IMG/VR virus record: IMGVR_UViG_2693429555_000008
From: a virus
Taxonomy: Duplodnaviria; Heunggongvirae; Uroviricota; Caudoviricetes
Direction: 5' to 3' (one strand)
Length of the DNA stretch: 8,796 nucleotides
The notes below the pieces were generated by a model that worked only from the letters and a program-made list of their open reading frames with translations, was not told where the DNA came from and made no database searches. Shown piece after piece: positions 837-7,376 of the stretch. Each line of letters opens with the position of its first letter. Position 1 is the first letter of the stretch. A program made the translations under genes and the position numbers.

Positions 837-1020
837 GTTGACCTCATTTCCCCTTAACGCCGGGGTAGCGGAACAAAAACCTGCTGCATAGTTATTAAAG
901 TTGAACCCTGCCGTCATGTTCTTACGCCTCGGGCTGGCTACTTAACCCCTGACCACTGCCTGGTAACTCGAAGTATTGCCCTGCATTCTGTGGGGTGGGG
1001 TGGGTTGGTATGAAAGGAAG

Positions 1021-1060
1021 GATACCCATGGGTATCCAAAAAGTAAATACCCATGGGTAA
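1021..1060. promoter_or_regulatory. OL-like operator pair: two copies of the 12-bp palindrome TACCCATGGGTA (1023..1034 and 1048..1059), centres 25 bp apart
   Basis: Perfect palindromes read directly; the first extends to the 16-bp GATACCCATGGGTATC. They sit between the repressor 3' end and the leftward small-gene operon and overlap a candidate leftward promoter (-35 TTTACT / -10 TATCCT on the minus strand). A T6 run at 1061..1066 follows the second copy on the plus strand, with a U-rich stretch after it on the minus strand, so a terminator role for the repressor transcript is also possible. Confidence 0.45.
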
Positions 1061-1101
1061 TTTTTTGATGTGTCTTAACTGGTGACTGGTTGTTTGGTGA
1101 G

Positions 1102-1521
1102 TTATGATGCGTTTTGTGCTTTCTTTTTACGGATTTCTTCGTAGATCATATTGTAATACTGTTTTTTCTCTTCAAGAGTTTTTAATAAGTTATCCGCTTC
1201 ACTTTCTGGCAGTTCGTCTAAGAGATCTAAAAAAATACGTTGTCGTGGCGTTAGAACCCTTGTTTCATAATTGGAGGCTGTGTTCGTTGATGATGAAACG
1301 ATACCATCCATCCATCCCCGGGGTAACCCAAAGGACTCTTCTATAATCTCCACCATATCATCAGCGATCCGTTTTTTTCCTTTTTTCCCCTCTGGGTACA
1401 ACATTCTTGATACATAAGAAGGCTCGCGACCGATCTTTCTGGCCACGTTAACCGCTTTACCATCGCATTTCTCATCACGAATTTTGATGAGTTGTTGTCG
1501 TCTAAATTCATATTTGTCCAT
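1102..1521 (-). CDS. Prophage repressor, XRE-type HTH, DicA/RacR-like, no peptidase domain (139 aa from first ATG)
   Basis: Track ORF 1102..1563 begins at a TTG; the first ATG is at 1521..1519 (MDKYEFRRQQLIKIRDEKCDGKAVNVARKIGREPSYVSRMLY...). HTH segment GKAVNVARKIGREPSYVSRM. C-terminal LTPRQRIFLDLLDELPESEADNLL resembles the DicA C-terminus as I recall it. Divergent from a Cro-like gene. No Shine-Dalgarno before the ATG and a TATTAT -10 (1533..1528) 6 nt upstream suggest a leaderless transcript. Confidence 0.75.
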   Translation of the reverse strand: MDKYEFRRQQLIKIRDEKCDGKAVNVARKIGREPSYVSRMLYPEGKKGKKRIADDMVEIIEESFGLPRGWMDGIVSSSTNTASNYETRVLTPRQRIFLDLLDELPESEADNLLKTLEEKKQYYNMIYEEIRKKKAQNAS

Positions 1522-1556
1522 AGGTAAATAATAGATGCGATTACCGCAAGGTAAAC

Positions 1557-1596
1557 AACCCAAGGGTATTGACTTTTGTTTACCTGTGGGTATTCT
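1557..1596 (+). promoter_or_regulatory. OR-like region: rightward promoter (-35 TTGACT 1569..1574, -10 TATTCT 1591..1596) overlapped by two operator half-palindromes (AACCCAAGGGTA 1557..1568; TACCTGTGGGTA 1581..1592)
   Basis: Hexamers with a 16-bp spacer, AAGGAG Shine-Dalgarno at 1611..1616 and ATG at 1622. Both sites match the TACCCATGGGTA palindrome at 10 of 12 positions and are 24 bp apart centre to centre, mirroring the OL-like pair. Confidence 0.45.
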
Positions 1597-1621
1597 TTGC
1601 TGTGTTTACTAAGGAGTAGCT

Positions 1622-1903
1622 ATGGAAGAATTAAGAATATTTCTCAATTCTCTTTCGTCAGATGAACAGCGTATGTTTGCATGTGAGTGTGGTACTAGCA
1701 TCGGTTATCTAAGAAAGGCATTGAGTAAAGGTCAAATGTTAGGGGCATCGTTATGTGTCCTTATTGAGCGAGCCAGTAATGGTGAAGTTACACGTCAGCA
1801 ACTAAGGCCTTTTGATTGGATGAATATTTGGCCCGAGCTGGAAGATACCAAAACGTTAACACAACCACTTACTAGGAGCTTGATTCATGAAAATCAAGCA
1901 TGA
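1622..1903 (+). CDS. ydaS: Cro-like HTH regulator, YdaS family (93 aa)
   Basis: First rightward gene, divergent from the repressor, with a strong AAGGAG Shine-Dalgarno. The C-terminal segment LIERASNGEVTRQQLRPFDW matches the E-R-A-x-x-G-x-V-x-R-x-x-L-R-P-x-x-W signature I associate with YdaS/Cro-like phage regulators. Its 3' end overlaps the next gene by 17 nt. Confidence 0.65.
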   Translation: MEELRIFLNSLSSDEQRMFACECGTSIGYLRKALSKGQMLGASLCVLIERASNGEVTRQQLRPFDWMNIWPELEDTKTLTQPLTRSLIHENQA

Positions 1904-2312
1904 ACACATCCGCATGGCGATGAATGCCTGGGCGCGTCCTGATGGCGAAAAAGTTCCAGCAGCTGGAATAACCCAGGCTTATTTTGAGTTGGGTATGACG
2001 TTTCCTGAACTGTATGACGACAGCCATCCGGAAGCCCTGGCTCGCAATACCCAGAAAATTTTCCGCTGGGTAGAGAAAGACACCCCTGATGCAGTTGAAA
2101 AAATTCAGGCGTTGTTACCAGCGATCGAAAAGGCAATGCCACCTTTGCTGGTGGCCAGAATGCGCAGCCACAGTTCAGCTTATTTTCGGGAGTTGGTGGA
2201 GACGCGGGAGCGACTGGTGAGAGACGCTGATGATTTTGTCGCAGTGGCAATCGCCGGTTTCAATCAGATGAACCGTGGTGGCCCGGCAGGAAATGCTGTG
2301 GCAGTACATTGA
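1887..2312 (+). CDS. ydaT: YdaT-like protein (CII-position regulator/toxin family), 141 aa
   Basis: ORF MKIKHEHIRMAMNAWARPDGEK...; AGGAG Shine-Dalgarno at 1873..1877. It sits immediately after the Cro-like gene, as in the racR-ydaS-ydaT module of the Rac prophage; the N-terminus and length (~140 aa) fit my recollection of YdaT. Confidence 0.65.
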   Translation: MKIKHEHIRMAMNAWARPDGEKVPAAGITQAYFELGMTFPELYDDSHPEALARNTQKIFRWVEKDTPDAVEKIQALLPAIEKAMPPLLVARMRSHSSAYFRELVETRERLVRDADDFVAVAIAGFNQMNRGGPAGNAVAVH

Positions 2313-2383
2313 CTGACAATAGCCATATCGAATCGCTTCCGGCAATTCGTGAGTAAAAAGATTCGGTATCAGAAGAGGTGAGT

Positions 2384-2542
2384 ATGGCTAACGCCTGGCT
2401 CAGATTATGGCATGACATGCCAAATGACCCTAAGTGGCGAACAATTGCCAGGGTGTCAGGGCAGCCAATTGCAACAGTGATGGCAGTGTATATCCACGCT
2501 CCTGGTGAGCGCGTCACGAAATGTCACGCGAGGTCACATTGA
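2384..2542 (+). CDS. Replication initiator, N-terminal fragment (52 aa ORF ending inside iteron array 1)
   Basis: ATG 2384 with GAGGTG Shine-Dalgarno; MANAWLRLWHDMPNDPKWRTIARVSGQPIATVMAVYIHAPGERVTKCHARSH, stop TGA 2540..2542. The N-terminus resembles prophage replication proteins, and the gene sits where O would be in a lambda-like early-right operon. Confidence 0.5.
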   Translation: MANAWLRLWHDMPNDPKWRTIARVSGQPIATVMAVYIHAPGERVTKCHARSH

Positions 2543-3455
2543 TGTCACGACAGAAGATTTGGCAAGTGCGCTCGACGTGACAGAAGAGGTAATTGATTCA
2601 ATTTTGCAGACGATGCAGGGGCGGGTACTTGATGGTGATTTAATCACTGGATGGGAAAAACGCCAGGTGCTTAAAGAGGACAACGGCAATATTTCGCAAA
2701 CCGCAAAATCTCCGGCAGAGCGCAAGAGGGCGCAGCGTGAGAGGGAAAGAAAGCGGGAACAAAATGGCGATTGTCACGGCGCGTCACGAAATGTCACGCA
2801 CATGTCACGACGAGTCACGACAGATAAAGATACAGATAGAGATACAGATAAAGAAGATCAAAACACTATGGTCCATGGCGTAAAAAACGCCACGAACCAT
2901 GTAGGGGATGTTCAGACCGTCACTCCTGGCCAGCCCGCAGGCACGACACCGGAAGCCGATTCAGCGTATGCGCTGAAAGCCGATTCGGGCGCTGTGCAGC
3001 AGGCGATGACCGCTGGGCCGGAGCAATCACACCAACTGCAGCAGCCTGAAGCCGATTCCGCCATTCAGCGGGAAGCCGATCGGGTAGTCCCGGAAAACAC
3101 CGGGCAGCCTGTGGGACGAGTGGATTATCCGGATGTGTTCGAACAGGTCTGGCGGGAATACCCGTTACGAGCCGGGGCAAACCCGAAGAAATCCGCTTTC
3201 AGTGCCTGGAAGGCCAGATTACGCGAGGGGGTGCCACCAGAGGCCATGCTGGATGGTGTAAGGCGTTACACAAGATACCTGGCTGCTACCGGGAAAACGG
3301 GAACGGAATTTGTTCAGCGAGCGACGACGTTTTTTGGACCGGACCGGAATTTTGAAAACCCCTGGTTGCTCCCGGTAAGCGGCACGAACAACCAGCGTTG
3401 TGTTAATCATATTTCTGAACCGGACACCGAAATTCCGCCGGGATTCAGAGGGTAA
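2505..3455 (+). CDS. Replication initiator, main ORF in the +1 frame (316 codons; GTG at 2505, no Shine-Dalgarno of its own)
   Basis: Long ORF with no ATG or ribosome-binding site; its frame opens at 2481 and overlaps the N-terminal ORF over 2481..2542, so both are most simply one gene interrupted by a +1 frame change. It contains both iteron arrays and a low-complexity basic/acidic linker (KRAQRERERKREQ; TDKDTDRDTDKED). Confidence 0.6.
   Translation: MSASRNVTRGHIDVTTEDLASALDVTEEVIDSILQTMQGRVLDGDLITGWEKRQVLKEDNGNISQTAKSPAERKRAQRERERKREQNGDCHGASRNVTHMSRRVTTDKDTDRDTDKEDQNTMVHGVKNATNHVGDVQTVTPGQPAGTTPEADSAYALKADSGAVQQAMTAGPEQSHQLQQPEADSAIQREADRVVPENTGQPVGRVDYPDVFEQVWREYPLRAGANPKKSAFSAWKARLREGVPPEAMLDGVRRYTRYLAATGKTGTEFVQRATTFFGPDRNFENPWLLPVSGTNNQRCVNHISEPDTEIPPGFRG
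2509..2549. repeat. Iteron array 1: four GTCAC(G/A) motifs starting at 2513, 2523, 2533 and 2544 (10-11 bp phasing)
   Basis: Read directly. The 21-bp block GCGCGTCACGAAATGTCACGC (2509..2529) recurs at 2779..2799. Confidence 0.6.
2771..2855. repeat. Iteron array 2 (putative ori core): five GTCACG motifs at 2773, 2783, 2793, 2804 and 2814, followed by three 12-bp repeats ACAGATA(A/G)AGA(T/A) at 2820..2855
   Basis: Read directly; helical-turn phasing of short direct repeats next to an A-rich repeat block, inside the initiator gene, as for the lambda origin within O. Confidence 0.6.
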
Positions 3456-3492
3456 CAGATTTCAGGTCATGGGGTAATTTTCAGGAGGGCTT

Positions 3493-3768
3493 GTGGCAAA
3501 AGTTTTTACTCCCGAACTGCGGGAAGAAGTGAAGGCGCGCATTGTGGAACTGGTACGCAGAGATGGGCGAAAAACGCGTAAACAACTGGAAAATGAAACC
3601 GGGGCGACGAGACACCTGATAGAAGTTCTGGTGAAAGAGCTGGTAGTTAGTGGCGCAGTATATGGTTCAGGACATGGAATATTTCCTTCGGAGCAGGCTC
3701 GTAAGGACTGGGGAAAAGCCCGCAAAAAAAATGTCGAGAGCGGCAGTGAAAAAGAAGAGCGACCCTGA
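3493..3768 (+). CDS. Hypothetical small basic protein with winged-helix-like segment (91 aa)
   Basis: GTG 3493 preceded by a strong AGGAGG Shine-Dalgarno (3483..3488), 37 nt after the initiator stop. RKTRKQLENETGATRHLIEVLVKELVVSG looks HTH-like. An A8 run (3724..3731) lies near the 3' end where an overlapping +1 ORF continues to 3901. Confidence 0.5.
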   Translation: MAKVFTPELREEVKARIVELVRRDGRKTRKQLENETGATRHLIEVLVKELVVSGAVYGSGHGIFPSEQARKDWGKARKKNVESGSEKEERP

Positions 3769-4045
3769 CCTGATTTATTCATTGCTAGATGGCGAAATAC
3801 GCCGTTACAACAGACGACAGAATATAATTTGTCGCGAGTGTCGTCAGAGCGAAGTTATGCAGCGCATACTGGAATTTTATCAGGGAAATGTTCGGTATTA
3901 ATTGAAGTGACGAAATTAAAGAGCATTAGTTCAGATATTAATTGACACTTCGATGGCACAGGCCCAGACCTAGTCTGGTTGTCAGCTTTGAGCTAGGTGA
4001 ACGTTGGTATCGTTAGTTTGTATTAATCAACGGAGAATAGGCCAA

Positions 4046-4076
4046 ATGACTTTTCTTTGCCTCTTTTAATTATAAT
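4046..4076 (+). promoter_or_regulatory. Candidate promoter for the 932-aa gene (-10 TATAAT 4071..4076; weak -35 ATGACT 4046..4051, 19-bp spacer)
   Basis: Good -10 hexamer in a ~240-bp AT-rich intergenic region; the -35 is poor, so placement is tentative. AAGGA Shine-Dalgarno at 4132..4136 before ATG 4145. Confidence 0.25.
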
Positions 4077-4144
4077 TCAAGTTCAATTGATTACATTGAA
4101 GTACTAATGTGAGTCCGTCAAACAAATAGCTCAAGGAATAGGTC

Positions 4145-6943
4145 ATGTGGGGAAGTGAAAACAAACAAAATCTGGACGTACTGGATCCTGTGCAGTTGGT
4201 GCGTATCGAAGCGGTACACCGGGGGTTCCTTTACCAGCATCTTTACGCTGTAGGCTGCTTACTTTTGGCGCAGAGGGCAGCTATGGACTCAGTAACTGTC
4301 GAGCTTGATGAGGATATTGAGCTGAAATCCAAACAGGAACGTCTCTACATTCAGGTTAAAACCCGTTCAAAACCTATTATGCCCAACGATGTGTCGGGGG
4401 CTCTGGAGCGATTTGTAAAGCTCAGAAATGAGCATACTTCGGCAAACCGCGAAGGGGTGGCTTCTTTTGTGATTATTGTAAACCAGGCGCCTGGACCGCT
4501 GCTTCAGAAGATGATTGACGATAAAAAGCTTCCTTCTGATGTTCTTATTGTCTGGCCCCAGTCGACAGCTGGACGTCACCCGGCACTTCCGCCCGCATGG
4601 AGTACTCTGGCTGATGCGGCCACATGGTGTATCGCAGAAGCAGAAAAGCTGAAATTTTCACTATTGTCCCCAGAATCCTTGATTTGGAAGTTAGCAGGAT
4701 TGGTTCAGCTTGCCGCCACCGGAGGCGATACCAATGGACAACATACGTTTTTCACGGAAGAACTTACTGAACTATTTGAACAGTTGATCGTTCAGCTACA
4801 GGACTTTCCTGCACCACCAGCACTGTACCGCCCACAGAACGAAGAACCTTCTCTCACATCTGGTGAGCGGATCCGTATCCTTTGTGGACTCTCAGGTGCA
4901 GGCAAGACAGCTTGGGCCGCACAGGCCGCATTACACTCCACTGCACTTTGTGCTTATTACGACACCGGTGATCTTCCCGGTCCAGCTCTGGCCAGTACGC
5001 TGGTGCGCGAGATGGCTGCTAGATTTACAGCCCGTGACCAAGACGGTTTGCGCAGGATTTTGCTCCCCGGTGCCAGTGGTTTTGAGGCTCTTAGGAGTTT
5101 TGATACCTACCTGAAAGAGCAGGGTACCACCTTGGTGCTGGTTCTGGATAACGCCCATCGTGTACCTGCGGAAAATCTACTGGATGTTCTGAATGCAACT
5201 ACACATATTCGTTTTGTGCTGTTGTGCCAGCCTCACGAAAACGTTCGCGAACTGGAGGTCATGACGGGGCTACAGCGCGAGGGCCTGCAGGGATGGAATC
5301 TCGATACGGTAGCTGTCGTTGTAAACGATATCGGAGGATTTGCCACCGCTATGGGATACGAGCAGCTACGGGCTTACACTGGTGGTCTTCCCCTGTATGT
5401 AGAGAGCGCCGCAAAAATCGCCGTTTCTGATTATGAGCGTAATGTCGATGCTCTGTGTGCTGAACTCCAGCAACAAACCCATACTGCGGAAACCGCCCAA
5501 GAAATTATTCTGTCACGTGTATTTCAGGGATTTGAATCACTACTTCAGAGCGCGCTGGCATTGTTCAGTCTCTCTGACGTAGGGCTGAGTCGCGAAGAGA
5601 TTTCTACGCTCCTAATCAATTCGCTGAACATTTCACCAAGCAGTGCTGCTTCTTTAATTAGGAAAATGCGCGCTACTGGCACTATTGAAATTTATGGAAA
5701 CCAGACCCTGAAGGTACATGATGCTGTCAGGGGGCTAGGACTGCAACATCTGGAACTGATGGATCAGGGTATATCGAACAAAGCGCTACTAGCGCTGAAA
5801 GACCTTTTAGTTGAAAGTCTTCATAATACCCGCAATACAAAACGGTTATCGTTGTTGACTCAACTTTATATTAAGCTCAATGATGTCACGACGTTGATCG
5901 AACTCTCAGGCCAAGAAATGTTTTATGAGATGGGCGTGACGGTCGACATTCTTGCAAGCTTGGAGCGTGCTGCAACATCGGACTTATTGGGACCTGTTCA
6001 TAAATTCTGGGCATTGGATGGCCTTGTTTTCGTTGAGCTTAAAGACGGAATATCCGACCACATTGCTCAGAGGTTAAACATCATGGGAGCTTTACTTGCG
6101 GAGCACAAGTTCGGCTATCAAGAAGAGATGGCCTATGCAATGAAACGAATGTTATTTTCGGCAGAAAGCAATGATGCACGAGAAGTTCAAAAGCTGGCAC
6201 AGGAAGTCCGCCCCCAACTCCCAGATGAAGAACATAAACGCATCTTTGACTACAACCATGCCATTGCACTCTGGAGATTAAAAAAACTCAAGGATGCTGA
6301 AACATTAAGCTGTAATGTTATACAAGGGTACTATTCTTTATTTGGTATCACACCTGCTGATGTCATAGGAAAAAACGCCGACGCATTATGGAAAACTATT
6401 AATCATTCCGAAAATATGCAGGAACACTTTAAACATATGGCTGATGCTCTGGAGTTGCTGGCCAGAATTCGTGATGCGCAGGGAAAACTGTCACCATTAC
6501 TGCGTATTCATTCGATGAAGTTCTACAATCTGGCCATGGCCCCGGAATCCATGGTCAGGGTGGGCCAAGATCTGGCGGATGAGTTTGTTGCCATAAAGGA
6601 TTACGACGGTGCCAAGGAAGTCATGGAGCAACATGTCCTGCCGGTTGTCAATGAGGCAGGTCTAGTACATCGACTGATTCAGGTTCGAAGCCAATACGCA
6701 GTCATATTAGCACTATCGGGTCAGCATAAAGCAGCTGATGTCGAAATGCAGCGCCTTGCTCCCTATATCGAAGGCCTCACAGGTGTACAGCGTCAAGAAA
6801 TCCAAAATCAATCAAATTACATCGTACAGCTTGCCCATAAAGCAGCAAAGACTAAATTAACTGAAGTTTTTGGTGCGGTCGGCCGGAATGAACAATGCCC
6901 CTGTGGCTCGGGAATAAAGTACAAAAAATGTCACGGTGCCTGA
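4145..6943 (+). CDS. STAND/NB-ARC-like P-loop NTPase, 932 aa, with nuclease-like N-terminal domain, helical C-terminal region and terminal SEC-C zinc motif; candidate anti-phage defence protein
   Basis: Uninterrupted 2.8-kb ORF with its own Shine-Dalgarno. Walker A GLSGAGKT (4886..4909); Walker B-like LVLVLDNAH (5132..5158); HIRFVLLCQPHE resembling an NB-ARC RNBS-B/TTR motif; GGLPLYV resembling the GLPL motif (5381..5398); C-terminal CPCGSGIKYKKCHG (6896..6937) matching the SEC-C metal-binding motif. N-terminal GFLYQHLY and D/E-rich strand followed by QVK are compatible with a PD-(D/E)xK fold. GC content looks lower than in the flanking phage genes. Confidence 0.9.
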   Translation: MWGSENKQNLDVLDPVQLVRIEAVHRGFLYQHLYAVGCLLLAQRAAMDSVTVELDEDIELKSKQERLYIQVKTRSKPIMPNDVSGALERFVKLRNEHTSANREGVASFVIIVNQAPGPLLQKMIDDKKLPSDVLIVWPQSTAGRHPALPPAWSTLADAATWCIAEAEKLKFSLLSPESLIWKLAGLVQLAATGGDTNGQHTFFTEELTELFEQLIVQLQDFPAPPALYRPQNEEPSLTSGERIRILCGLSGAGKTAWAAQAALHSTALCAYYDTGDLPGPALASTLVREMAARFTARDQDGLRRILLPGASGFEALRSFDTYLKEQGTTLVLVLDNAHRVPAENLLDVLNATTHIRFVLLCQPHENVRELEVMTGLQREGLQGWNLDTVAVVVNDIGGFATAMGYEQLRAYTGGLPLYVESAAKIAVSDYERNVDALCAELQQQTHTAETAQEIILSRVFQGFESLLQSALALFSLSDVGLSREEISTLLINSLNISPSSAASLIRKMRATGTIEIYGNQTLKVHDAVRGLGLQHLELMDQGISNKALLALKDLLVESLHNTRNTKRLSLLTQLYIKLNDVTTLIELSGQEMFYEMGVTVDILASLERAATSDLLGPVHKFWALDGLVFVELKDGISDHIAQRLNIMGALLAEHKFGYQEEMAYAMKRMLFSAESNDAREVQKLAQEVRPQLPDEEHKRIFDYNHAIALWRLKKLKDAETLSCNVIQGYYSLFGITPADVIGKNADALWKTINHSENMQEHFKHMADALELLARIRDAQGKLSPLLRIHSMKFYNLAMAPESMVRVGQDLADEFVAIKDYDGAKEVMEQHVLPVVNEAGLVHRLIQVRSQYAVILALSGQHKAADVEMQRLAPYIEGLTGVQRQEIQNQSNYIVQLAHKAAKTKLTEVFGAVGRNEQCPCGSGIKYKKCHGA

Positions 6944-7098: not shown

Positions 7099-7172
7099 GA
7101 GAAAAGCCCCAGTTAACATTACGCGTCCTGCAAGACGCTTAACATTAATCTGAGGCTCAATCTATGAACGGC
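7099..7172 (-). ncRNA. sok: Candidate Sok-like antisense RNA
   Basis: Minus-strand promoter -35 TTGCCT (rc of 7202..7207) and -10 TAACCT (rc of 7179..7184), 17-bp spacer, start near 7172. The transcript would be complementary to the mok Shine-Dalgarno and start codon (7152..7166), contain hairpin GCGTC-CTGCAA-GACGC (7123..7138) and end in a U-rich tract (rc of 7099..7105). Boundaries are approximate. Confidence 0.35.
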
Positions 7173-7376
7173 AAATCTAGGTTAGCCTCTTACGTGCCGA
7201 AAGGCAAGGAGAAGCAGGCTATGAAGCAGCAAAAGGCGATGTTAATCGTCCTGATCGTCATCTGTTTAACCGTCATAGTGACGGCACTGGTAACGAGGAA
7301 AGACCTCTGCGAGGTACGAATCCGAACCGGCCAGACGGAGGTCGCTGTCTTCACAGCTTACGAACCTGAGGAGTAA
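7164..7376 (+). CDS. mok: Mok-like reading frame (70 aa), an in-frame N-terminal extension of hok
   Basis: ATG 7164 with GAGG Shine-Dalgarno 8 nt upstream; in frame with hok and sharing its stop, as I recall for chromosomal mokC/hokC. Its start region is the predicted Sok target. Confidence 0.5.
   Translation: MNGKSRLASYVPKGKEKQAMKQQKAMLIVLIVICLTVIVTALVTRKDLCEVRIRTGQTEVAVFTAYEPEE
7221..7376 (+). CDS. hok: Hok/Gef-family type I toxin (51 aa membrane peptide), HokD/RelF-like
   Basis: Translation MKQQKAMLIVLIVICLTVIVTALVTRKDLCEVRIRTGQTEVAVFTAYEPEE is nearly identical to the E. coli HokD/RelF sequence as I recall it; hydrophobic transmembrane helix followed by the conserved RKDLCEV...GQTEVAVF core. 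Confidence 0.9.
   Translation: MKQQKAMLIVLIVICLTVIVTALVTRKDLCEVRIRTGQTEVAVFTAYEPEE

Follow-up and report, generated by a model that had tools for sequence, protein, structure and literature searches.

A predicted replication origin embedded in the initiator gene of a lambdoid E. coli prophage

Do the two clusters of short, phased repeats inside a prophage initiator gene form the origin from which that prophage replicates? We addressed this question in the window, the whole stretch of 8,796 nucleotides that was analysed, for which the first-pass annotation had proposed a probable prophage origin with iterons and an unwinding element inside the initiator gene. Comparison with related genes supports this proposal at the sequence level, and the region is very probably where a lambdoid prophage of E. 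coli (Qin/Rac-like) has its replication origin, within the gene of its own initiator. It represents a further case of a known kind, the origin embedded in a phage replisome-organizer gene. The locus comprises the following elements.

2384 to 3455, plus strand: replication initiator gene (PHROG 3729, 'replication initiation protein'), frameshifted in the window
2384 to 2669, plus strand: region coding for the winged-helix domain at the N-terminus (intact protein, residues 1 to ~95)
2498, plus strand: extra G (1-bp insertion), which breaks the initiator frame after codon 38
2513 to 2549, plus strand: array 1, four direct GTCAC(G/A) sites starting at 2513, 2523, 2533 and 2544
2576 to 2581, minus strand: single inverted GTCACG site, 27 bp 3' of array 1
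2703 to 2762, plus strand: region coding for a basic helix, residues 107-126 (AKSPAERKRAQRERERKRE), directly upstream of array 2
2773 to 2819, plus strand: array 2, five direct GTCACG sites starting at 2773, 2783, 2793, 2804 and 2814
2820 to 2866, plus strand: A-rich, purine-rich tract, three ACAGATAAAGAT 12-mers plus GATCAAAACAC
2868 to 2900, no strand assigned: imperfect 33-bp palindrome, directly after the A-rich tract

Both arrays, the inverted site and the A-rich 12-mers all lie inside the initiator gene, as the first-pass annotation had stated for the arrays, but the gene itself turned out to be interrupted by the G at 2498. This insertion, located 15 nt upstream of array 1 and outside any homopolymer run, alone separates the sequence from L001, the closest E. 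coli relative; it is missing in all three close relatives aligned (L001, L002 and L003, which is phage Tritos). Over 1200 record bases, with a query of 1201 bases, the two best matches in E. coli show 99.9% identity. The intact product of L001-L003 has 356 aa (examples of the intact initiator are WP_001262378.1 and the TRITO_36 product of Tritos) and ends in the C-terminal tail EPDTEIPPGFRG; the window translation changes frame at 2498. RefSeq names the relatives 'phage replisome organizer' or 'hypothetical protein'. The initiator gene is positioned downstream of a cI / cro / cII-like early region, and in the window as in close relatives it is followed by a DUF977 / Ren-like gene. Of 5426 complete E. 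coli genomes, 3385 contain DNA related to the gene region, with up to four related places per genome; such DNA also occurs in Pseudomonas and Aeromonas phages and in Bordetella genomes.

All nine GTCAC(G/A) hexamers described earlier were located, spaced by 10, 10 and 11 bp in array 1 and by 10, 10, 11 and 10 bp in array 2, while the tenth, inverted site was newly seen. The 21-nt sequence GCGCGTCACGAAATGTCACGC occurs twice without change, at 2509-2529 and at 2779-2799; with an offset of 270 nt both copies are in the same frame, so that each encodes ASRNVT, in agreement with the earlier observation. The local enrichment of the motif, which had been suggested as a check, was borne out in the 8.8-kb window, where 10 of the 15 GTCACR sites sit in the two clusters. 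Across the whole window, 5-mer chains with at least three copies at 10-11 bp spacing occur only as the two arrays, and the longest phased chain in 5000 codon shuffles of the gene never exceeded 3 copies, against the observed 4 and 5. Array 1 lies ~260 bp upstream of array 2 (~230 to 350 bp among relatives); since 260 bp corresponds to 24.8 turns at 10.5 bp per turn, we do not claim an exact helical register between the arrays. As placed by the structure model, array 1 encodes residues 43-55 (ASRNVTRGHIDVT), which form the end of helix 1 and the next loop of the winged helix, and on this placement we rejected the idea that array 1 encodes the recognition helix. Array 2 falls in a disordered linker (pLDDT below 50), and its hexamers are read in three frames (CH, SR and VT).

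A synonymous-site comparison of 22 non-redundant species, with a locus GC of 0.34-0.69, indicates that the repeats are under selection at the nucleotide level. Specifically, eight synonymous third positions in the array-1 hexamers, including those of the rare codon pair TCA-CGA, are 91-100% conserved, compared with a mean of 55% for 56 other conserved codons (Mann-Whitney p = 5e-6). All 19 species with valine at residue 65 use the same codon, GTG, which carries the inverted site, and in most homologues this site is found at gene nt 193. The proposal of an origin had been made dependent on homologous initiator genes carrying the repeats, and arrays were indeed found in 33 of the 38 related genes compared. 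Clear arrays were not seen in the other five (L034, L036, L041, L042 and L044), and the low-GC relatives L034, L036 and L041 show no clear repeat of any kind; L043 has partial arrays only. The array-2 place holds 3-5 copies in homologues, where the linker peptides vary between phages while the DNA sites persist. These relatives, from beta- and gamma-proteobacteria, share 57-70% protein identity, with ~70% DNA identity in the two phages checked. In a viral contig set, 120 contigs contain three GTCACG sites at 10-11 bp spacing, and these phased triplets are located mostly in genes of the initiator's protein family: 57 hits fall in close homologues and at least 23 further ones in distant replisome-organizer ORFs. 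Profiles were matched by 32 hits, 9 of which are among the sequences used to build the A4 profile.

The two arrays also change together. GTAACG replaces GTCACG in both arrays at once in L028, L030, L038 and L040, and CGAACG does so in L035, L037 and L039. The 5-mer that is most frequent in a gene's array-1 region is found again 3.7 times on average in the linker of that gene, but 0.37 times in the linkers of other types. Residues 43-55 are the most variable segment of the otherwise highly conserved N-domain and vary with the hexamer. This loop is not the sole co-varying segment, because the basic helix before array 2 differs too. The basic helix, modelled at residues 110-126, is kept across the superfamily and differs between hexamer types; we infer that residues 107-126 are a candidate DNA-contacting element.

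Natural exchanges further separate the two halves of the gene. In Pseudomonas phage phita81A and in Aeromonas phage pAEv1818, the N-domain with both arrays is combined with different C-terminal domains and different partner genes, the latter being a primase-helicase in phita81A and DnaC in pAEv1818. Shigella phage POCJ13, which also has a neighbouring DnaC, carries the window's C-terminal domain with another N-domain and no GTCAC arrays, and in the natural recombinant P0004 the sequence switches right after the A-rich tract. These comparisons indicate that arrays and N-terminal domain are inherited as a unit, independent of which C-terminal domain or partner gene follows; for array 1 this linkage is trivial, because array and domain are the same DNA. 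Many members of the family, though not all (TP901-1 is an exception), have an adjoining loader or helicase gene; none was found next to the initiator in the window.

To which family does the initiator belong? Aligned by hhalign, the proteobacterial N-domains (A2) and PF09681-type proteins (A4) match with a probability of 98.1% and an E of 7.7e-14 over 118 columns. Two A4 members hit PF09681 at 2.6e-52 and 5e-38, and the window protein alone reaches 12.8 bits (E 0.12) where the Pfam cut-off is 23.3. Judged by these profiles, the initiator is a distant relative of the PF09681-like phage replisome organizers, below Pfam-level membership. Its modelled N-terminal fold is a DnaD-NTD-like winged helix, and the DnaD N-terminal domain is the closest structural relative, at a sequence identity of 9-10%. 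DnaD is a host (Bacillus) replication-initiation protein and is not known to have an origin in its own gene. The solved structure of its N-terminal domain is a tetramer (PDB 8ojj), and in the winged helix of the initiator residues 67-77, the predicted 'recognition helix', are acidic; both points count against the origin reading. A PDB sequence search with the N-domain profile gave no match, and a Pfam search of the initiator with E up to 1 gave no match to an O-type family. No sequence similarity to lambda O was detected and homology to it is ruled out; 'DNA replication protein O' in some phage records is a name only.

The three tandem ACAGATA(A/G)AGA(T/A) 12-mers noted earlier after the second cluster are present at 2820-2855. 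Among the 40-mers of the gene, the one starting at 2824 is the least stable (dG -42.8; gene mean -57.4, sd 4.0), and it ranks in the top 0.4% of the window for low stability. Moreover, (GATAAA/CAGATA)n tracts homologous to the 12-mers come after array 2 in nearly all relatives. We regard the tract 2820-2866 as a probable DNA unwinding element. The palindrome that follows has a dG of -9.5 kcal/mol (z -3.05), its stem is preserved in phage POCJ13 via a paired T/A to A/T change, and it may be part of the origin. A scan for DnaA boxes showed no enrichment, and every candidate near the arrays had at least two mismatches, which gives no indication of a DnaA-dependent origin. The promoter scan, which covered 1000-4200, gave signals at chance level only.

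We then compared the locus with known systems. SPP1 oriL consists of G38P-bound repeats and an AT-rich unwinding element inside gene 38 and allows replication in vitro (PMC5737612, PMC6316719). The short repeats of gene 38 (GAAAC/AGACAC) show ~11 bp phasing and are followed by A-rich tandem 9-mers. As with array 2 and the 12-mers, the repeats are placed between the N- and C-terminal domains with the A-rich tandem repeats next, and a second organizer-bound region is present, whereas the repeat sequences differ from the GTCACG found here. The N-terminal part of G38P has no Pfam PF09681 match, and the likeness described here is one of layout. The second G38P-bound region, oriR, is proposed to stall forks, not to initiate (PMC6316719); it is intergenic and ~13 kb away, whereas array 1 of the window sits 260 bp ahead of array 2, within the part of the gene that encodes the N-domain. 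SPP1 also encodes its own loader and helicase, neither of which adjoins the gene in the window prophage.

Homology of the N-terminal domain extends to the organizers of Staphylococcus phages phiPV83, 29 and 71 (PF09681, Phage_rep_org_N). These share the order of winged helix, W-E-K-x-Q motif, basic helix, three to four GTCACG sites at 10-11 bp and purine tract, the last consisting of purine-rich (GATAAA/GAAGA)n repeats at ~400 nt from the gene start. Unlike the window, Firmicutes PF09681 genes usually have the linker array only and no N-domain array. We found no experimentally defined origin for phiPV83, 29 or 71. The organizers ORF13 of TP901-1 and Rep2009 of Tuc2009 bind a repeat-rich origin region inside their own genes (PMC8965321). 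The TP901-1 rep gene resembles the window in having repeats and then an A-rich stretch in the mid-gene linker, but both phages use another N-terminal domain family (HTH_36 plus DnaB_2) and other repeat sequences. For 80alpha, an ORF20 mutant showed no trans complementation, and the authors suggest an embedded origin (PMC5499656).

The lambda origin likewise lies in the middle of its initiator gene, with iterons adjoining an AT-rich tract (PMC7466680), and array 2 matches this position, which in lambda falls between the DNA-binding N-terminal part and the C-terminal part. The label 'lambda-like' given by the first-pass annotation therefore holds for the layout, but neither for the family nor for the iterons, which in lambda are 19-bp imperfect inverted repeats (PMC7466680) and in the window 6-7-bp direct repeats one turn apart, with no 19-bp palindromes. 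The window further differs from lambda in having two separate arrays and no P gene. Iteron plasmid replicons (RepA / pi / TrfA) are characterized by 17-22-bp iterons at a spacing of ~two helical turns and by a WH1-WH2 Rep protein that binds them, features absent here. Our literature search found no binding, footprint, origin-cloning or marker-frequency data for the element or close relatives, and work on the hexamer as an iteron, on origins of related phages and on Stx-phage 'Eru' types does not describe this origin.

How might such an origin work? The initiator would bind the GTCACG sites, whose 10-11-bp spacing puts them on one helix face, so that a cooperative protein array could form on array 2. 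On supercoiled, transcribed DNA, this complex would melt the adjoining A-rich tract, 2820-2866, and the C-terminal domain of the initiator would then recruit the host helicase. Array 1, with its four direct sites and one inverted site, would serve as a second binding platform for the same initiator, and it may either be brought to array 2 by looping, giving a larger initiation complex, or serve control. The binding itself, the part of the protein that binds, a melting that begins in the tract and the contribution of array 1 are all proposals. Specific binding of the repeats by the initiator has indirect support in the joint change of the two arrays and in their linkage to the N-domain.

Other explanations of the arrays have to be weighed against initiation. 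The repeats could be a by-product of the protein sequence, namely of the repeated peptide ASRNVT, or of chance, with no function in the DNA. The encoding of ASRNVT by both arrays in the same frame would fit, and a degree of DNA conservation would be seen at array 1 in any case, given that a conserved protein domain is encoded there. However, the synonymous sites of the hexamers stay near-invariant over a locus GC of 34-69% where other synonymous sites vary, three frames are used, the linker peptides vary where the sites stay, codon shuffles never yield such chains, and the hexamer changes jointly in both arrays. An artefact of recent common ancestry is likewise argued against by the identity levels, 57-70% in protein and ~70% in DNA (two phages), across beta- and gamma-proteobacteria. 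An origin in protein sequence or chance is thus extremely improbable. Alternatively, the arrays could bind a protein for a purpose other than initiation, such as autoregulation or an early-operon transcription roadblock, handcuffing copy control, fork arrest, a centromere-like function or packaging. Plasmid centromeres, too, typically have short direct repeats at a spacing of one helical turn, which speaks for such a role. SPP1 oriR offers a precedent for fork arrest (PMC6316719). Array 1 has no adjoining A-rich tract, so at least this array may be regulatory. On the other hand, an easily melted purine-rich tract follows array 2 in nearly all relatives, the layout fits origins that experiments have defined within the same protein family (PMC5737612, PMC8965321), neither a partition nor a terminase gene is linked, and phages with different early genes next to the initiator still have the arrays. 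We consider a purely non-initiation role quite unlikely and prefer the replication origin.

A different matter is whether this origin, true for the family, is a dead relic in the window's own genome. The G insertion at 2498 points in this direction, and given this frameshift the window's initiator copy is probably inactive in cis. The DUF977 ORF is also shortened, to 91 aa as against 140 aa in L002 (the copy of the closest relative is annotated as frameshifted), and the neighbours match dicB, ydfC and hokD, which we take to be genes of the defective Qin prophage of K-12, as in a cryptic prophage. Yet the cis elements show no damage and match exactly those of relatives whose gene is intact, and the G insertion might be a sequencing error. 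With the initiator frameshifted, the origin could fire only with a matching initiator in trans, which the up to four related places per E. coli genome could supply. We see the chances that the window holds a relic as evenly balanced.

Within the origin reading, array 1 could be more than a set of spare iterons: loop 43-55 may help to read the sites, possibly with basic helix 107-126. We hold this to be rather unlikely, but if the loop does read the sites, binding site and part of the specificity determinant would be the same DNA. Gene conversion between the arrays could then shift the origin sequence and the initiator specificity in one step, a built-in route to new replication-specificity types. 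In a weaker version, the arrays may loop over ~260 bp to form a bipartite origin with the 5' part of the initiator gene wrapped inside, so that initiator expression and origin firing would be coupled.

Our finding leaves the general view of the working of such origins unchanged. What it provides is a sequence-level origin prediction for a very common family of enterobacterial prophages, together with a search rule: 10-11-bp phased GTCACG-type hexamers, then a (GATAAA)n tract, ~390 nt into a replisome-organizer gene. It seems to apply across a range that extends from Staphylococcus phages to E. coli prophages. Possible uses are origin annotation, the prediction of replication-specificity (incompatibility) groups among co-resident prophages, and the design of origin-based interference, comparable to the phage-encoded resistance described for lactococcal phage origins.

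The region lies in a lambdoid (Qin/Rac-like) E. coli prophage, within its early-right operon, and has these features:

1020-1059 (-), long terminator-like inverted repeat with a 16-pair stem, TACCCATGGGTA...TACCCATGGGTA
1102-1563, minus strand, repressor-like gene
1622-1903, YdaS/Cro-like gene
1887-2312, YdaT-family gene
2384-3455, + strand, replication (initiator) gene
2868-2900, imperfect 33-bp palindrome (dG -9.5 kcal/mol, z -3.05), directly 3' of the A-rich tract
3493-3768, + strand, DUF977/Ren-like gene, truncated
4145-6943, + strand, gene for a 932-aa SEC-C/AAA/Cap4-nuclease protein
7164-7376, hokD

The inverted repeat lies about 45 nt past the 3' end (1102) of the minus-strand repressor-like ORF, near a (GTGGG)n mini-repeat at 990-1008. 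The 932-aa protein has a Cap4-like dsDNA nuclease domain at the N terminus, where there is also a weak PADLOC match to LmuA, and a SEC-C motif at the C terminus, together with an AAA ATPase domain; its gene is a candidate for anti-phage defence. The slot between the DUF977 gene and hokD is occupied by a sce7726-family gene and a 'beta family protein' in a second E. coli relative and by another hypothetical gene in phage Tritos; since its contents differ among relatives, it looks like a variable cargo hotspot.

Within the replication gene, the first-pass annotation had described two clusters of GTCAC(G/A) hexamers at 10-11 bp spacing, three A-rich 12-mers after the second cluster, and the peptide ASRNVT encoded by both arrays in the same frame, all of which were recovered. 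Specifically, the hexamers start on the + strand at 2513, 2523, 2533 and 2544 (array 1) and at 2773, 2783, 2793, 2804 and 2814 (array 2), with a single inverted site at 2576-2581, and three copies of ACAGATA(A/G)AGA(T/A) occupy 2820-2855. The two arrays share an identical 21-nt block encoding ASRNVT, at 2509-2529 and at 2779-2799. The motif is locally enriched: the window contains 15 GTCACR sites, and 10 fall within the two clusters. The two arrays are the only places in the 8.8-kb window where any 5-mer is repeated three or more times in a chain with steps of 10-11 bp, and in 5000 codon shuffles of the gene the chain length never exceeded three copies.

The repeats are conserved among homologues, whose lack of them would have spoken against an origin. 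A search with the N-terminal 160 residues gave 838 protein matches, and 39 genomic loci, one per species, were compared from beta- and gamma-proteobacteria, plus phages phita81A (Pseudomonas) and pAEv1818 (Aeromonas). About 25 species carry GTCAC sites at gene positions 129, 139, 149 and 160 and also near 389, 399, 409 (and 419), and these positions hold over a locus GC of 0.34 to 0.69. We then considered synonymous positions, restricted to codons with a conserved amino acid across 22 non-redundant species. Eight third positions inside the array-1 hexamers are 91-100% identical, compared with a mean of 55% for 56 other conserved codons (Mann-Whitney p = 5e-6); the codons GTC, ACG, GGT and CAC are used in 22/22, and Val65, whose codon bears the inverted site, is GTG in 19/19. 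Because the 10-bp period is not a multiple of three, the array-2 hexamer is read in three frames, as Cys-His, Ser-Arg and Val-Thr, and the linker peptides vary between phages while the DNA sites persist. These two observations exclude a repeat maintained purely at the protein level.

In divergent lineages the hexamer itself is altered, and altered in both arrays alike. Among the homologous loci it reads CGAACG in L035, L037 and L039 (e.g. at 131, 141, 151 and 362, 372), GTAACG in L028, L030, L038 and L040, and a rearranged GTCACG in L032 and L033. For the most frequent 5-mer of the array-1 region, the mean number of further occurrences is 3.7 in the linker of its own gene and 0.37 in the linkers of genes with an unrelated motif. 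The joint change of the arrays and the shared 5-mer argue that one factor reads both and that its specificity has drifted. Clear arrays were absent from five genes, namely L034, L036 and L041 from low-GC hosts and the N-domain fusions L042 and L044, and were partial in L043. In L042 (Serratia MAG) and L044 (Pantoea), with the match at 2501 onward, the conserved N-domain, which spans the first ~100 residues, continues downstream into a different domain carrying …YVYYV…GISRNPWAR…, with no hexamer arrays there; this N-domain may be re-used outside replication initiation.

Within the A-rich tract, the probable unwinding element, the 40-mer from 2824 is the least stable duplex of the gene. Its nearest-neighbour dG is -42.8 kcal/mol, whereas the gene averages -57.4 (sd 4.0), which places it in the top 0.4% of the window. 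It is 75% purine on the coding strand, and equivalent (GATAAA / CAGATA / GAAGA)n tracts lie just 3' of array 2 in nearly all relatives examined. In Shigella phage POCJ13 a paired substitution of T/A by A/T (GGCGT...ACGCC to GGCGA...TCGCC) keeps the inner stem of the adjoining palindrome. Since this stem is preserved at the cost of two amino-acid changes, selection on DNA or RNA structure is suggested.

Phages phita81A and pAEv1818 keep the N-domain and both arrays, while their C-terminal domains are unrelated to that of the window and the gene after the initiator encodes a primase-helicase in the former and DnaC in the latter. In POCJ13 the C-terminal domain is that of the window, the N-domain is a different one and there is no GTCAC array. 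The naturally occurring E. coli variant P0004 shows no difference up to the end of the A-rich tract, after which it continues into another C-terminal domain. These domain patterns indicate that the N-domain, both arrays and the A-rich tract form a single exchange unit. Such modularity is known for lambdoid initiators with their origins.

Pfam assigned the initiator to no family above threshold; PHROG 3729, named 'replication initiation protein', has it as type member. An AlphaFold2 model was built from 43 sequences for P0004, whose C-terminal domain differs from that of the window; the confident part of the model covers residues 11-90. It shows a winged helix, made up of helices at 29-45, 56-63 and 67-77 and a hairpin at 78-86. 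Next in the chain are a disordered stretch and a basic helix (110-126), and a disordered linker (128-172) separates the latter from a helical C-terminal domain. Array 1 codes for the end of helix 1 and the next loop (residues 43-55); array 2, together with the A-rich tract, codes for the disordered linker. The classical recognition helix is acidic, and both the array-1-encoded loop and the basic helix before array 2 vary with hexamer type. The C-terminal tail ...EPDTEIPPGFRG (3417-3455) resembles the C-terminus of E. coli DnaT (NCBIfam NF002770, E 0.0015) and could be a short motif for docking onto the host primosome. Related tails close several unrelated alternative C-terminal domains (P0004, P0049, P0103), which together with the DnaT likeness hints at helicase entry through the host primosome pathway. 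This prophage has no helicase-loader gene adjoining the initiator.

A scan of viral contigs for three GTCACG sites 10-11 bp apart returned at least 120 contigs and hence a sample. Among the matches listed, at least 57 lie in close homologues and at least 32 more in ORFs fitting organizer-family profiles, of which 9 had been used to build the A4 profile of PF09681-type organizers, leaving at least 23 independent; most of the remainder are arrays between genes or sit in unclassified ORFs. Contigs L214, L244, L167, L147, L161 and L235, also among the matches listed, are unrelated and bear phased triplets in apparently non-coding stretches (e.g. GTCACGGAAAA three times), which could represent ordinary intergenic iterons belonging to other replicons. 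The distant organizer members include Staphylococcus aureus phages phiPV83, 29 and 71; in these and in further PF09681 organizer genes of Firmicutes phages (L225, L224, L152, L163, L180), three to four GTCACG sites recur at 10-11 bp, partly as GTCACGTGAC palindromes, with a purine-rich tract after them about 400 nt into the gene, which repeats the module of array 2. The hexamer seems common to very distant hosts. Genes of the distant members share the order of winged helix, W-E-K-x-Q motif, basic helix, three GTCACG sites and a purine-rich tract about 400 nt in, but unlike the window gene they usually have no array inside the N-domain, so the second array is mainly a proteobacterial-clade feature.

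For several characterized phage initiators the origin is reported to lie within the initiator gene. SPP1 oriL lies within gene 38 and comprises G38P-bound repeats and an adjoining AT-rich unwinding element, and a 356-bp fragment supports in vitro replication (PMC5737612, PMC6316719). The TP901-1 and Tuc2009 organizers bind repeats in their own genes, and these repeats are the origin (PMC8965321); for 80alpha, in which an ORF20 mutant could not be complemented in trans, the study's authors propose that the origin is embedded (PMC5499656); in lambda, iterons and an AT-rich tract lie mid-gene O (PMC7466680). In the SPP1 sequence we found five short repeats phased at 11 bp, then A-rich 9-mers, between two protein domains. 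The window element would work like these origins, and it belongs to the organizer group. The first-pass reading of a lambda-like origin inside the initiator gene is supported as to the origin, with amendments; membership in the lambda O/ori-lambda type is ruled out by the absence of O homology, 19-bp palindromic iterons and a P gene.

The first-pass annotation missed a frameshift. An extra G at 2498 is absent from three close relatives and is the sole difference from the closest E. coli chromosome across 2300-3500; the other two are a second E. coli chromosome (99.5%) and phage Tritos (96.7%). It shifts the initiator frame after codon 38, 15 nt upstream of array 1, the intact product having 356 aa. 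A sequencing error is possible, but the G lies outside any homopolymer run and so may be a real inactivating mutation. The DUF977/Ren-like gene has 91 codons, against 140 in the second E. coli relative, and is annotated as frameshifted in the closest one. Given the initiator frameshift and this truncation, the prophage copy is probably decaying.

We propose that initiator molecules would bind the hexamers along one helix face, bending the array-2 DNA or wrapping it, and would melt the adjoining A-rich tract, whereupon the C-terminal domain would recruit the host helicase; array 1 would serve as a second platform for the same initiator and may either stimulate or restrain initiation. The element is a well-defined addition to a known kind of phage origin, beside a broken initiator gene in the window. 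Two points go beyond the ordinary: two arrays evolve in concert, one of which lies where the gene encodes the winged helix of the initiator itself, and the module of GTCACG sites plus purine tract recurs in Firmicutes phages as well as in proteobacterial prophages.
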